From IMG/VR virus record IMGVR_UViG_2913147268_000005: a stretch of DNA of 64,000 nt; one strand, given 5' to 3'. The notes beneath the pieces were generated by a model that saw nothing but the letters and a program-made list of their open reading frames with translations, did not search any database and was not told the DNA's origin. Within the stretch, counting starts at the first letter, position 1. The number at the start of each line of letters is the position of its first letter. Position numbers and translations under genes: made by a program. Below, piece by piece: positions 4,701-20,201 of this stretch. Source of the stretch: a virus (lineage: Duplodnaviria; Heunggongvirae; Uroviricota; Caudoviricetes).

Positions 4701-5334
4701 CCGTGCATTTTTGGTAATATCCGTCAGCGTCAGCGCATTCAGCCCCAGTGTCAGACTGTCTTTTATGACCTGGAATGCCGGGCCAGCCACTCCATTCAGT
4801 TTCGGAGTAACCGTGGCACTGCCGGCGGTGAACACCAGCTCCAGCGTCTGCCAGTCGTTACTGTAATTCCCGAACTCGCCCAACTTTGTGTTTCCTGCTT
4901 TCTTGTGATGCATCAGATTCAGTTTGCCGTCTGTGGTCTGGGTGAAGAACGACATCAGGAACGGGTTACCAGTCCCGGTCATCGCCACGACGTCAGGTAA
5001 CGCTACATCGGTATACAGATAAATTCCCAGACCGAACTGATTGTTGGTCAGTGCGCCTGACAGTCGAAACTTACAGCTCAGTCTGCCACCCCGTGTCAGC
5101 AGGGAGACTGCGTCATCCACCGGGCGCGTCAGGGACCAGGCTTTATTGCTCTGCTTGGTGATCTTAAATACACCATCTGACAACTGAATTCCGCCATTCT
5201 TAATGCTCCAGCCCTGCGCAGCAGCATCTCCGGCTGTCGGCAACAGGGAGATTGTGCGTACGGATGCATCTTCAGACGGCCCCGATGGCGTGTCGCCGCC
5301 GGGCGAGGGTTTGATTTCCGGTGCCTTACCACTA
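4677..5334 (-). pseudogene. nanS: nanS-p 3' fragment (C-terminal domain), inverted relative to the 5' fragment
   Basis: Minus-strand ORF begins SGKAPEIKPSPGGDTPSGP (same motif that ends the 22243 copy) and matches the 41309-41950 copy. Confidence 0.7.
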
Positions 5335-11848: not shown

Positions 11849-12691
11849 TCATGATGAAATTGCCGAAGTTTTTTTATCGTGCTGAAGTACCGCAAATGCC
11901 ATTAAAACCTCAAGAGAATAGCGGCGATAATACTTAACAAAACCATAATAAAATACTCGGGATGCAGCAATACAAAACAAGAGAAGAAAACAAAAAGGTA
12001 ACAGTCTGATATTTATATCTATTAAAAAGGATAGAAGGAGCAGGAACATAAGCAACCAGACTGAAGCGAGAAAAACAAATGTAATGTTTCTACAAAAACC
12101 ATACAAAGCAACATAGTTTTGCATTTTCACCTGATGATTTTTAGAATGTTCATACACATAATGATAAGCAAGGCGAAAAAGATCGCCCCTCAAGCCCTTA
12201 CGTCGATATAGCGTAGATACAGAAAAAACATTTATATAACCATCTCGTATTTGCGGCCAAAAGACTTTAATAAGTATAGAATGCAGTGTGGTTTTATGAT
12301 GTTCTGCTTTATCAAAAGCTGATACAGGAAATAAAAAAACTCCACGAATAAAATTAACTATACTGAACTTAGTATTATGTCGTTTTATTTTCAGGGAGCT
12401 TCTTTTAGAAAACAGATAAATTGAAGGATACCCAAGTTTACTGTTCATGTATTTTTCAATTAAACAGGATGATAGAATAGATATGAAGTGACCTGAAATA
12501 TATGATAGAACGATTAATACCACATATATAAATACACTTATTATTTCTTTATATTTCAGGATATGGTTAAGAATACCTTCTATATAAACAGGGTTAATTT
12601 CAATAGAAAACAAAAAAAGGATAAACAGGAATAACCCACCTGGAATTAGATAGCCCAAAAAGTCATAAAATGAAAACGGATTCTGTGTCAC
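11849..12691 (-). CDS. hypothetical polytopic membrane protein (hotspot cargo gene B)
   Basis: 280-aa ORF, GTG start preceded by AGGGGGAA SD; at least 5 hydrophobic TM-like segments; AT-rich. Confidence 0.7.
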   Translation of the reverse strand: MTQNPFSFYDFLGYLIPGGLFLFILFLFSIEINPVYIEGILNHILKYKEIISVFIYVVLIVLSYISGHFISILSSCLIEKYMNSKLGYPSIYLFSKRSSLKIKRHNTKFSIVNFIRGVFLFPVSAFDKAEHHKTTLHSILIKVFWPQIRDGYINVFSVSTLYRRKGLRGDLFRLAYHYVYEHSKNHQVKMQNYVALYGFCRNITFVFLASVWLLMFLLLLSFLIDINIRLLPFCFLLLFCIAASRVFYYGFVKYYRRYSLEVLMAFAVLQHDKKTSAISS

Positions 12692-12730: not shown

Positions 12731-13228
12731 TTATTTGTTTTTCCGTAAAGGATTAGCTTTCCATCTTCTTACTAACCATTCGAATTCTTGATATGTAGTA
12801 TCCGAATTAATGCTTTCTCTGATTGCTTTAATTAATGGCTCGGCAATATCATATGTCTCTACAACTGTTGTGTAAGATGTTCTTTTTATCATTTTTTCAT
12901 CATAAATACCTTCACGAATACTTACAGCAACTCGCTCGTAAAAATTTAAAATATATTGAAATTTTCGACGCTCGGCCATTTCTTCATCTGTTATTATGCA
13001 ACCATCACAAGGAAAAACATAAGAACGAAATGATTTGCCTGAACGATGCACTTGTTTCAGGGTATGCAATGACTCTATATATTGCATATCTTGCCGACTC
13101 TCAAAAAGAAAGTTGGCCGTTTGAGTTTTTTTTGCGGTACGCACATTGTAGATAATGGTTCCAATGGCAACCAAAACGCCAAGCAGAACAATAGCATTGC
13201 TGATGATTTGTAGTGTTATTGGGTTCAT
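12731..13228 (-). CDS. hypothetical membrane-anchored protein (hotspot cargo gene A)
   Basis: 165-aa ORF; N-terminal TM helix ITLQIISNAIVLLGVLVAIGTIIY then soluble domain; 39 bp upstream of gene B; AT-rich. Confidence 0.7.
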   Translation of the reverse strand: MNPITLQIISNAIVLLGVLVAIGTIIYNVRTAKKTQTANFLFESRQDMQYIESLHTLKQVHRSGKSFRSYVFPCDGCIITDEEMAERRKFQYILNFYERVAVSIREGIYDEKMIKRTSYTTVVETYDIAEPLIKAIRESINSDTTYQEFEWLVRRWKANPLRKNK

Positions 13229-13245
13229 CCTATTTCATCCATAAA

Positions 13246-13273
13246 AAAGGCGGGGAGCAAATCCCCGCCTCAT
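13246..13273 (-). terminator. rho-independent terminator just upstream of gene A
   Basis: Minus-strand hairpin AGGCGGGGA-tttgc-TCCCCGCCT followed by TTTTTT; preceded by an 11-codon ORF MKKMYDEFDGF. Confidence 0.55.
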
Positions 13274-13425
13274 TAGAGGTCAACGTAGCTTAGAAACCAT
13301 CAAATTCATCATACATTTTTTTCATATCAACCCCCTCATAGAAATCATAACCACGTTTTGTGGTTTTTGTGACGTATAAACTACATCAAAGGCAAGCCAC
13401 GGTCAAATATATAGGCATGCTTACC

Positions 13426-13452
13426 TGCACAAAAGTGCACAAATTTGCACAA
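13426..13452. repeat. three direct TGCACAA repeats at ~10-11 bp spacing (candidate operator)
   Basis: TGCACAAAAGTGCACAAATTTGCACAA; a fourth TGCACAAAAAAA near 13520. Confidence 0.5.
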
Positions 13453-13823
13453 TTTTTTTGAACGACTTTTTACCCTTCCGGCCCGCATGGCGGCTGGATC
13501 CGTCAAGGATCCGTGCGTGCACAAAAAAACGCGCTTTTTCTGCGCGCAGGTGACGGGGGAACAGCCCGCGTTTCAGGGGGTAAATAGCATTCCCTGAACG
13601 ATGTCGCAGAGACACAACAGAATGGCCATATTTCTCACGCTGAGCATGAAAAAGGCGTGAGGGCTTTTGATTTGATGGGGTGAAAGGTAAGGCCGTCAAA
13701 ATCGCACTGAGGCAGCGAGAACATGCAGTCAACGCGGTGGAATTGCGTAAGAGTCTGACCGTCGATGGTGGCGATAAACTGGAAGGCGTCGTGAAATTAT
13801 CTGATTGATACAGGAGCTGGAGA

Positions 13824-13852
13824 GCCGGGGCATAAATTTTTTATGCCCCGGC
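13824..13852. terminator. perfect palindrome, probable bidirectional terminator
   Basis: GCCGGGGCATAAA-TTT-TTTATGCCCCGGC. Confidence 0.5.
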
Positions 13853-13951
13853 GAAGCAGCAGACAAGCGAAGCGCGTCAGCGATACGGCACCTTGCCGAC
13901 CATACTTCATAAGTGCAAAATACGAGCAAAGAAATCAATGGAGGCTGTCTT

Positions 13952-14476
13952 ATGGTCATTAATTACAAGCAGTTAAGAGAAAAACGGGAGCAGGTAAAGG
14001 AGAGCTTTCGCCGCAATGAAGATCTGACCCCGCTTGTACGCCTTGCCCAGGGCATTGTTGATGCTTATGAAATCTCGCTGGAGCTGCCATCACAGACCTG
14101 GACAGATAGCGACGGTAATCGCCAGCATTACGTTTCATGCGGACTGGAAGCAGCCGAAGGATTTCGCAGAATGCCTTTATCCCAGATCCCTGCCGCTACC
14201 CCCAAAGCACGGGGCAGCAATGATGAGCGAAAACTGACTTTTAGTATTGAAACGGTGGTTGACGACACACCTGGCGAAGTCGCGTTCGTGCACACTCCTG
14301 TTTCGATCGCAATGTATAACGATGAAATACAGGTTCGCGTTAATAATAATATCGTGCCACTTAAAGAAGGTAATTCACCCTACACCACCGTTTGTGAAGC
14401 CATTCAATATTACGTTCTCTCTGAAATTGATAATCTCAAGCCTGACGGCACCCAGAAAATGGTTCAACTCTGGTAA
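13952..14476 (+). CDS. hypothetical protein (hotspot cargo)
   Basis: 174-aa ORF from ATG with GGAGG SD 7 nt upstream; no homology recognised. Confidence 0.55.
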   Translation: MVINYKQLREKREQVKESFRRNEDLTPLVRLAQGIVDAYEISLELPSQTWTDSDGNRQHYVSCGLEAAEGFRRMPLSQIPAATPKARGSNDERKLTFSIETVVDDTPGEVAFVHTPVSIAMYNDEIQVRVNNNIVPLKEGNSPYTTVCEAIQYYVLSEIDNLKPDGTQKMVQLW

Positions 14477-14477
14477 A

Positions 14478-14512
14478 AAGGACAGCCCCATCACGGGGCT
14501 GTTTTTTCATCA
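14478..14512. terminator. bidirectional terminator between convergent genes
   Basis: CAGCCCCATCACGGGGCTG hairpin flanked by A-run and T-run. Confidence 0.6.
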
Positions 14513-19400: not shown

Positions 19401-20201
19401 ATGATTACTCCTGCACAACAACACTGGCAGAACGTGATGGCACAGCGCGCAGGCCGGGCGAATGAAGGTGTGGACCACGCCGCGTGTACCGCGCATGAAG
19501 AGGTGCTGTATCGTCTGCGTCTGGCACAGGCCAGGCTAAAGGCCATACAGGCCAGAAGCGCGAAAGCCGCCATCAAAAAAGAGTTGTTGCCGGACTTTTC
19601 CGGCTGGATTGAGGGAACGCTGGAGGCTGACGGCGGGCAACAGGACGAAGTAATTGCCACGCTGATGGTGTGGGCGATTGACTGCGGCGATCTTCCGCTG
19701 GCGCTGCGTATTGGTGCATATGTGGTCCGTCACAACCTCATCATGCCGGATAACTTTGGCCGTACTGCTGCCACGGTACTGACCGAAGAAATCTGCAACC
19801 CGGTACTGACGCAGGCTGGGACGGATGCCGACGCGGATTTATCCGCCTTTATCGAACCACTGGACACACTTTGGGAAATTATCGCCAACCAGGACATGCC
19901 GGACGAAGTGCGCGCCAAATTATGCAAGGCGTGTGCCTTTGCCCGTCGTGGCCTGACCGATGCAGACAACATGGCCTCATCACTGAAGCTGCTGCGCGAA
20001 GCGATGCACCTGAACCCGAACGCAGGTGTGAAACGCGAGATTGCAACCCTTTCCCGCGCCCTGAAAAAAGCCGATTCCGCAGCCGAACCAGAAGACGCCA
20101 GCGCACAGCAGGCGCAGGACGAAAGCAGCAAAAGTAAAAAGACAACGCGGAAGCCTGCAACACGAAAAACCACCGCGACGCAGAAGGCAAAGCGCGGTTA
20201 A
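19401..20201 (+). CDS. P2 gpM-like terminase small/endonuclease subunit
   Basis: 266-aa ORF in the P2 M position. Confidence 0.65.
   Translation: MITPAQQHWQNVMAQRAGRANEGVDHAACTAHEEVLYRLRLAQARLKAIQARSAKAAIKKELLPDFSGWIEGTLEADGGQQDEVIATLMVWAIDCGDLPLALRIGAYVVRHNLIMPDNFGRTAATVLTEEICNPVLTQAGTDADADLSAFIEPLDTLWEIIANQDMPDEVRAKLCKACAFARRGLTDADNMASSLKLLREAMHLNPNAGVKREIATLSRALKKADSAAEPEDASAQQAQDESSKSKKTTRKPATRKTTATQKAKRG

Follow-up and report, generated by a model that had tools for sequence, protein, structure and literature searches.

Background

In P2-like phages, the literature places a defence hotspot between gpA and gpQ, adjoining the cohesive-end (cos) site, and the satellite P4 is reported to have only the cos packaging signal, about 55 bp long, in common with P2. 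A very small gene is arranged in a comparable way in mccA-mccB, where an open reading frame (ORF) of 7 codons is followed by an intrinsic terminator and an abundant short transcript results (Zukher et al. 2014, PMC4231749). Here we consider an interval that resembles both systems: positions 13229 to 13545 of a 64,000-nucleotide stretch of viral DNA (IMG/VR record IMGVR_UViG_2913147268_000005), which we call the window. The interval lies directly upstream of a minus-strand gene, gene A, that encodes a DUF4760 protein. An earlier sequence-only reading had pointed out an 11-codon ORF, a strong hairpin and a group of TGCACAA repeats in this interval, and had suggested that together they form a leader peptide with an attenuator, plus an operator that keeps the cargo silent until triggered.

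The flagged features exceed chance, and they belong to two unrelated units; the 317-bp interval spans the junction of phage backbone and cargo. Taking the two sides jointly, we consider it probable that 13426-13545 is the outer part of the cos region of a P88-like prophage of the P2 family and that 13229-13425 is the 5' end of a mobile cargo module. For the module itself we favour, as rather more credible than not, a translated micro-gene followed by a leaky terminator that sets the ratio of two products, with the peptide acting in trans. On the cos side this is ordinary biology; the interest lies in the micro-gene family.

A conserved micro-gene precedes DUF4760

The 11-codon ORF is present as described, directly 5' of gene A, encoding MKKMYDEFDGF behind a GAGGGGG Shine-Dalgarno (SD) sequence (coordinates of all features are collected in Table 1). 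An exact search with the last 21 nt of the micro-ORF returned 13 IMG/VR prophage contigs, all of which have the same hairpin downstream. One of these contigs (L007) matches Citrobacter phage Shae_phiSM (L004); there the peptide reads MKKVFDEFDGF, and the hairpin carries a compensatory change from G-C to A-U. A DUF4760 protein profile added 24 loci from other genera, 50-88% identical and 21 of them complete, the genera including Xenorhabdus, Kluyvera, Enterobacter, Klebsiella, Atlantibacter, Rahnella, Franconibacter, Pantoea and Buttiauxella. Every complete locus has an ORF of 9-15 codons with a ribosome-binding site, located 15-130 nt upstream of DUF4760.

The peptides share a motif, D-E-[FY]-[DE]-[GW]-[FLC], which we found in the micro-ORF of 24 of the 24 DUF4760 loci examined for it (47-100% identical to gene A) and which forms the C-terminus of the peptide in 23. 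Even the copy that is only 47% identical, from a non-P2 prophage of Providencia, has the micro-ORF (MVNYIRDEFEGF). Because DUF4760 genes always have the micro-ORF, they probably depend on its peptide. Over the six motif codons, in 18 distinct coding versions, entropy at the first, second and third codon positions was 0.81, 1.27 and 7.18, respectively. Variation is thus concentrated at third positions, as expected of selection on the peptide and not on the RNA, and judged by this pattern the micro-gene is selected for its peptide and for this C-terminus in particular.

The leader and its terminator

The hairpin GAGGCGGGGAtttgcTCCCCGCCTT is likewise present, with 7 G-C among its 10 pairs, and ends in a run of T; the distance from the end of that run to the ATG of gene A (13228) is 14 nt and not the roughly 18 nt first given. 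Because the T-run ends so close to its start codon, gene A has to be transcribed through the terminator. The stem differs in sequence among homologues, that of Pantoea (L039) wholly so. In the other direction, a sigma-70 promoter can be read from the sequence ahead of the micro-gene, with a predicted transcription start near 13371, and five homologous loci have TTGACT-17-TA(A/G)TTT at the equivalent place (L025, L026, L027, L029 and L037).

For the predicted leader (146 nt) the computed fold, at -39 kcal/mol (z-score -2.8), consists of a 5' hairpin, a helix between the SD and a downstream CCUC box, and the terminator. RNA structure was also assessed on an alignment of the 12 closest homologues, whose fold score was reached by none of 500 shuffles. 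The CCUC box, located between the stop codon and the terminator, is invariant, and the SD/CCUC-box duplex was computed at -10 to -12.7 kcal/mol in 10 of the 12. In the minimum-energy, centroid and alignment folds this pairing sits beside the terminator without competing with it, and no antiterminator that competes with the terminator was found in any of the three; nor did we see runs of regulatory codons in the micro-ORF. Without a competing antiterminator, the region lacks the defining feature of a classical attenuator. The leader-peptide and attenuator proposal therefore holds in part: a conserved leader module exists, with a terminator that is kept by different stems and a peptide that is under selection, while the switching elements are missing and, as described below, the same motif also turns up where an operon ends or an unrelated gene follows.

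Two side observations concern this part of the locus. In three complete E. coli genomes (H17-H19) and three IMG/VR contigs (L010, L014 and L017), an IS4-family element annotated as IS421 lies inside the terminator hairpin (window 13247-13271; junction GGCGGGGATTTGCTCCC/ATAAGCGCTAACTTAAGGG...) and parts the micro-ORF from DUF4760. IS186-type elements favour stems with runs of G and C as targets. Separately, a palindrome ATTACC-N5-GGTAAT occupies the promoter spacer and -10 region about 90-130 nt upstream of the micro-ORF in L025, L027, L029, L030 and L037. In these homologous promoters it could act as an operator; the window has a degenerate form of it (CTTGCCTTTGATGTAGT).

DEFDGF micro-genes beyond DUF4760

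We scanned viral contigs for DEFDGF followed by a stop codon (GAYGARTTYGAYGGNTTYTAA) and matched at least 120 loci, 113 of which were analysed. The motif ended an open frame of at most 40 codons in 105 of them, and 64 had an SD and an ATG within 21 codons. By comparison, the reversed peptide matched 19 loci, with one in an open frame of at most 40 codons and none with an SD and ATG. Only 32 of the 113 hits precede a DUF4760 gene. The phages that carry the others include lambdoid, T4-like and P88-like types.

The settings of these micro-ORFs vary. In lambdoid prophages, MYDEFDGF and MKDEFEWCDEFDGF lie between a Q-type antiterminator gene and the lysis genes, where the late-operon leader is found. 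MKDEFDGF is coupled by an ATGA overlap to the end of an operon, and a terminator follows. A P88-like hotspot has MKKKRMNDEFDGF ahead of different genes. In the T4-like phage PG7, a 21-aa ORF that ends in DEFDGF and is annotated as a coding sequence is placed just upstream of gp47/gp46 and is followed by a terminator; MILDEFDGF, on a 163-kb contig, is just upstream of a primase-like gene, and another micro-ORF of the type stands beside a terminase gene. Several peptides, MKDEFEWCDEFDGF among them, contain the motif twice in tandem. Both the tandem motifs and the occurrence at operon ends favour a trans-acting peptide over a device that regulates only the next gene.

For the 21-aa T4-like peptide, tblastn gave no match and no PHROGs family was found, and our literature search on the peptide motifs returned no relevant paper. 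It is possible, though we regard it as doubtful, that peptides of 8-21 aa ending in DEFDGF-COOH are a widespread family of phage micro-proteins, undescribed in the literature searched, that would act in trans through the C-terminal motif on a conserved host or phage target, with DUF4760 as an obligately paired case in which regulator or antitoxin and effector form a two-part prophage cargo.

On three contigs of large lytic phages (L108, near 1774 on the minus strand, L127 and L153) we noticed runs of neighbouring micro-ORFs with related acidic-aromatic endings, for example MILDEFDGF and then MPCVLDEFEGFDEHPDF. L127 and L153 have repeated units of the EENWG/EEDWG kind beside the DEFDGF ORF.

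The TGCACAA repeats and the cos region

Over a 2.8-kb query stretch the window matches ST131-type E. coli prophages and phage vB_EcoM-705R2 at 100% identity, and this stretch was matched in part in 1171 of 5426 complete E. coli genomes and over at least 80% of its length in 226. The order of genes in the RefSeq record is replication endonuclease (repA), ParM (parM) and partition protein (parR) on the replication side, the minus-strand cargo of a 280-aa hypothetical protein and DUF4760, and then, beyond a gap, a 174-aa hypothetical protein, portal, large terminase subunit, GpO and P2-family capsid protein. The cargo of the window is therefore in the hotspot between gpA and gpQ of P2-like phages. 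In the same RefSeq record, which matches the window at 100% over the query stretch, gpM (terminase small subunit, window 19401-20201) is flagged as a pseudogene ('internal stop'), yet it is open for 266 codons in the window.

The three TGCACAA repeats at helical-turn spacing and the fourth copy near 13520 are where the sequence-only reading put them. In the 64-kb window TGCACAA occurs 8 times, against 14.3 expected by chance, and 4 of the 8 copies fall within 99 bp, three of them spaced by exactly 10 bp. The composite pattern TGCA-N6-9-TGCA-N6-TGCA-N68-TGCA is present once in the window and in none of 100 shuffles, and every P2-family locus compared has it. When the window was aligned with P88, PhiR44_2 and Citrobacter phage Shae_phiSM, similarity started exactly at the first TGCACAA and ran for about 450 bp, and to the left of it each had unrelated cargo. 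Identity is 74% over the part that matches in Enterobacter phage phiT5282H, a member of another genus, which has nevertheless kept the triple repeat, the T-run, the fourth copy and GCGCAGGTGACGGGGGAACAGCCC and has an identical 19-mer GGTGACGGGGGAACAGCCC.

For comparison we took P2, P4 and 186 at their right ends, the cohesive ends of these phages being either annotated or given by the limits of the record. Each has three TGCAT repeats and a fourth copy beside cos. Third and fourth copies are 72 bp apart in the window as in each of the three phages (Table 1), the fourth copy precedes the cohesive-end site by about 30 bp, the four TGCA cores are invariant in a gap-poor alignment of the four sequences, and the A-run and small inverted repeat after the fourth copy are in the same place. 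The annotated cosR of P2 starts 29 bp past the fourth copy, and GGTGACGGGGGAACAGCCC aligns to that position; we regard it as the putative cut site, placed by position. The surroundings agree as well, since the site lies between the replication and hotspot side and the 3' end of portal gene Q, as a P2-family cos region should, with the flanking architecture of phages whose cos is annotated.

Because they mark the edge of the backbone and share the geometry of the cos flank in P2, P4 and 186, we interpret the repeats as elements of the packaging site and not as an operator of the cargo; by this comparison they are this lineage's version of the four TGCA-core repeats beside cos. By analogy they may be recognition or architectural elements of terminase, comparable to lambda cosB, and probably bind the small terminase subunit or shape the DNA. 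In the papers on P4 cosmids, we found no dissection of cos sub-elements. We also considered the repeats as a ParR centromere and dropped the idea, since P2, P4 and 186 share them and are not known to carry ParMR.

A variant prophage (L019, IMG/VR 3300007747_000080, near 5026) has lost the three TGCACAA repeats together with the -35 element in a deletion of about 90 bp; the micro-ORF, hairpin and DUF4760 are still present, as are the -10 region and the fourth repeat copy. Two BamHI-type palindromes, GGATCC-GTCAA-GGATCC, occupy window 13497-13516, inside the stretch that separates the triple repeat from the fourth copy, and are kept in P88-like phages and not in phiT5282H, P2, P4 or 186.

Proposed mechanism and alternatives

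Under the reading we favour, the cargo promoter would drive a short, structured and strongly translated micro-gene mRNA. Most transcripts would end at the terminator as a short, stable message, and the minority that read through would alone reach DUF4760 and gene B, the next gene of the cargo, so that the outcome would be a high ratio of peptide to DUF4760, as in mccA-mccB. The peptide would probably act in trans, through its acidic-aromatic C-terminal motif. DUF4760 appears to need it, as a regulator or an antitoxin-like partner, and the peptide may work without DUF4760 too.

A leader-peptide switch in cis, in which nascent DEFDGF stalls or destabilises the ribosome near the stop codon, alters the leader fold or the terminator and lets DUF4760 be made only when triggered, seems to us unlikely. 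Several observations fit it. Short acidic nascent chains such as MgtL can destabilise ribosomes, the order of ORF, terminator and gene with 14 nt from T-run to ATG is the right one, and the conserved residues stand immediately before the stop codon, which itself is in the loop of a covarying stem; the distance from stop to terminator is fairly constant and includes the conserved CCUC box. What speaks against such a switch is that neither single-sequence nor alignment folds contain a structure competing with the terminator, that the stop codon varies across homologues (TAA, TGA and TAG), and that three more distant DUF4760 loci (L040, L042 and L044) lack a terminator altogether, their micro-ORF standing 26-27 nt before DUF4760. 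The motif moreover ends micro-ORFs after which only a terminator follows, recurs in a T4-like phage and beside a terminase gene, and can be in tandem inside one peptide. We give very little credence to a small regulatory RNA, with promoter, 5' hairpin, structured body and terminator, in which the ORF is incidental: the predicted transcript is indeed compact, about 130 nt, well folded and ended by a terminator, and the one Rfam match was to SorX, at a sub-threshold 19.3 bits against a gathering score of 46.6, but it is mostly the third codon positions that vary, the peptide motif persists in loci with unrelated flanking RNA, and a strong ribosome-binding site precedes the micro-ORF at the right spacing in homologous loci.

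The operator proposal, that a phage or host regulator represses or activates the adjacent cargo promoter through the TGCACAA repeats, is in our judgement very improbable. It draws on the 10-bp phasing of the repeats, which end 19 bp upstream of the predicted -35, and on P2, where the old-tin promoter likewise abuts equivalent repeats. The P2 record, however, annotates the start of the old-tin mRNA directly outside the triple repeat, so a cargo promoter that abuts the repeats is the normal layout of the hotspot; by analogy, the cargo promoter of the window would be there solely because the hotspot abuts cos. Identical repeats adjoin unrelated cargo on either strand: in P88 and PhiR44_2 the cargo is on the opposite strand with its own terminator just before the repeats, and in these phages and phiT5282H the repeats are unchanged beyond the terminators of opposite-strand genes. 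Equivalent repeats are present in the satellite P4, whose reported likeness to P2 is confined to the packaging signal; a packaging role is also indicated by the constant 72-bp distance to the fourth copy beside cos, and no regulator gene travels with the cargo. The repeats are thus the first bases of the phage backbone, beside any cargo and in either orientation, and the operator claim is contradicted again by their positional match to the TGCAT repeats beside cos.

Some observations count against the packaging-site and micro-gene readings themselves. The identity of GGTGACGGGGGAACAGCCC to the P2 cos sequence GGCGAGGCGGGGAAAGCAC, 13 of 19 positions, is at chance level on its own, since 10-22 such 19-mers occur per shuffled window, and with at most 3 mismatches allowed GGCGAGGCGGGGAAAGCAC has no match in the window. 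The linear record of P88_4B11 begins near 13471, between the triple repeat and the fourth copy and about 78 bp left of the proposed cos site, whether as an arbitrary start or a true end. On the cargo side, one peptide (L032) runs on past DEFDGF by four residues, and a metagenomic homologue 40% identical to gene A has a micro-ORF and terminator with a different peptide. The pairing of SD and CCUC box lacks covariation, cognate pairs being no better than non-cognate ones, so it is the sequence that is conserved there. The fairly constant spacing from stop to terminator and the conserved stem around the stop would fit a role in cis equally well. Promoter use, termination efficiency and translation are all predictions from the sequence, and the stability and target of the peptide are likewise presumed.

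Features and neighbouring genes

Table 1. Features of the interval and its surroundings in the window, with the corresponding repeats of P2, P4 and 186
Feature	Position	Strand	Remarks
Gene B, 280-aa hydrophobic, probably multi-pass membrane protein	11849-12691	-	co-oriented with gene A; outside the conserved module
Gene A, 165-aa DUF4760 protein, N-terminal transmembrane helix and helical domain	12731-13228	-	Pfam PF15956, E = 1.8e-34
Intrinsic terminator: 10-bp stem, 5-nt loop, six-T run	13243-13271	-	hairpin GAGGCGGGGAtttgcTCCCCGCCTT at 13271-13247, T-run to 13243; 93.5% of cells paired
Conserved UUGACCUCU box (CCUC, anti-SD)	13275-13283	-	able to pair with the ribosome-binding site of the micro-ORF
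5-bp stem, stop codon in loop	13286-13299	-	3 of 5 pairs changed on both sides; 91.5% of cells paired
11-codon micro-gene, MKKMYDEFDGF and stop	13290-13325	-	ATG at 13325, TAA 13292-13290
Ribosome-binding site (SD) GAGGGGG	13331-13337	-	5 nt before the micro-ORF ATG
5' stem-loop of leader, AACCACaaaacGTGGTT	13349-13365	-	5' hairpin also in homologous leaders, sequence differing
Predicted sigma-70 promoter of the cargo module	13378-13406	-	TTGACC 13406-13401, 17-nt spacer, TAGTTT 13383-13378; read from sequence
Three TGCACAA repeats, 10-bp spacing	13426-13452	+	starts 13426, 13436, 13446; left edge of the conserved cos-region backbone
Conserved P88-lineage backbone block	13426-13872		from the cargo hotspot to the second variable spot beside the portal gene
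Fourth TGCACAA copy, then A-run	13518-13524	+	starts of third and fourth copies 72 bp apart
Small G+C-rich inverted repeat, ACGCGCtttttctGCGCGC	13529-13547		separates the fourth copy from the putative cos sequence
Putative 19-nt cohesive-end (cos) sequence, GGTGACGGGGGAACAGCCC	13549-13567	+	assigned by position
Repeats of P2 (L022)	2953, 2965, 2975; 3047		starts of the three repeats; fourth copy
Repeats of P4 (L023)	902, 915, 925; 997		starts of the three repeats; fourth copy
Repeats of 186 (L048)	602, 615, 625; 697		starts of the three repeats; fourth copy

The AlphaFold2 model of the gene A protein (mean pLDDT 92.8) has one long N-terminal helix and then a helical bundle. A fold search with this model gave no significant match in the PDB. 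It came closest to three plant immune proteins, EDS1, PAD4 and SAG101, in their helical C-terminal domains, with TM-scores normalised to query length of 0.55-0.59 and E of at least 0.25, a likeness of the model that is only a hint. Gene A matched no family in PADLOC-DB 2.0, and neither gene A nor gene B satisfied an anti-phage defence model there; gene B has a weak PADLOC match (E = 1.1e-5) to Csx27, an accessory protein of type VI-B CRISPR systems. We considered gene B as an obligate partner of DUF4760 and dropped it, since not one of the 25 other loci checked has it and it adjoins DUF4760 in E. coli cargo only. Among the matches listed in a profile search for more distant relatives of DUF4760, all were from Enterobacterales, and our literature search, which gave one incidental paper for DUF4760, found none that assigns it a function.

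A second variable spot (window 13873-14490) separates the conserved cos block from the portal gene. It contains an ORF of 174 aa (13952-14476, plus strand), without Pfam or PADLOC matches, that is present in the window and PhiR44_2 and missing in P88, Shae_phiSM and P88_4B11. Past the P2-like head genes, the window has long minus-strand ORFs of 1080, 861, 645 and 553 aa between about 24000 and 37000, which suggests a second, different prophage or a block of tail genes beside the P88-like element.

Significance

The RefSeq E. coli record leaves this conserved 11-codon gene unannotated, and the cargo that contains it is carried by 226 or more complete E. coli genomes, of which many are ST131. 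Should the peptide be functional, gene callers overlook a recurrent factor encoded by phages. The strict pairing of micro-ORF and DUF4760 offers a way into a family that has been annotated without a function and rides in a known defence hotspot. The four TGCA cores and the 72-bp gap are a signature by which the packaging site and the boundary of the hotspot can be located in P2-family prophages and P4-like satellites, for the annotation of such elements and for the design of cosmid or transducing-particle vectors. Sequences at the edge of a hotspot should be compared among sister phages before they are read as regulators of the cargo.

Comparison with known systems

The backbone side of the interval resembles the cos regions of P2, P4 and 186 in having short repeats beside the cohesive-end site, on the flank that faces away from the portal gene, in the order of three TGCA-core repeats, 72 bp, a fourth copy, an A-run, a small inverted repeat and the cohesive end. 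As in P2, a cargo hotspot and an outward promoter adjoin the repeats. It differs in the repeat itself (TGCACAA instead of TGCAT), in the spacing (10+10 bp instead of 12-13+10 bp) and at 6 of the 19 positions of the P2 cos sequence. The likeness to lambda cosB with its R sites is one of analogy, and terminase binding to the repeats of the window is putative.

On the cargo side, a short ORF and a terminator before a structural gene, and conserved residues that adjoin the stop codon, are shared with trpL-type attenuators and TnaC-type arrest peptides. The window has the short upstream ORF, whose translation is predicted, and the intrinsic terminator between it and the gene; it has no mutually exclusive antiterminator helix, no run of regulatory codons and no arrest signal that depends on one particular stop, and the identity of the stop codon is not conserved. 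Unlike these leaders, the DEFDGF motif also occurs where nothing downstream could be regulated. The motif itself recalls the C-terminal tip of SSB (...DFDDDIPF) and clamp-binding tails such as that of the PG7 polymerase gp43 (...SLDNMFDF), which likewise join a short acidic stretch to a C-terminal aromatic residue. The C-terminus of PG7 gp55 reads ...NLDFLYEADD, and in T4-like phages the DEFDGF micro-ORFs are found among replication and recombination genes. The positions align incompletely, and we treat this loose resemblance as a lead only.

The arrangement of mccA-mccB is close to that of the module, although the proteins are different: nothing suggests that the peptide is a substrate of the downstream protein or that a peptide-modifying enzyme is present, no enzyme domain is recognised in DUF4760, a small membrane protein, and the peptide motif of the window occurs without DUF4760 as well. 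In both, a tiny ORF, of 7 codons in mccA and 11 in the window, has a ribosome-binding site to itself, and an intrinsic terminator separates it from the next gene, so that the genes downstream are reached by read-through only. By analogy, this design would give far more message for the micro-ORF than for the genes that follow it.

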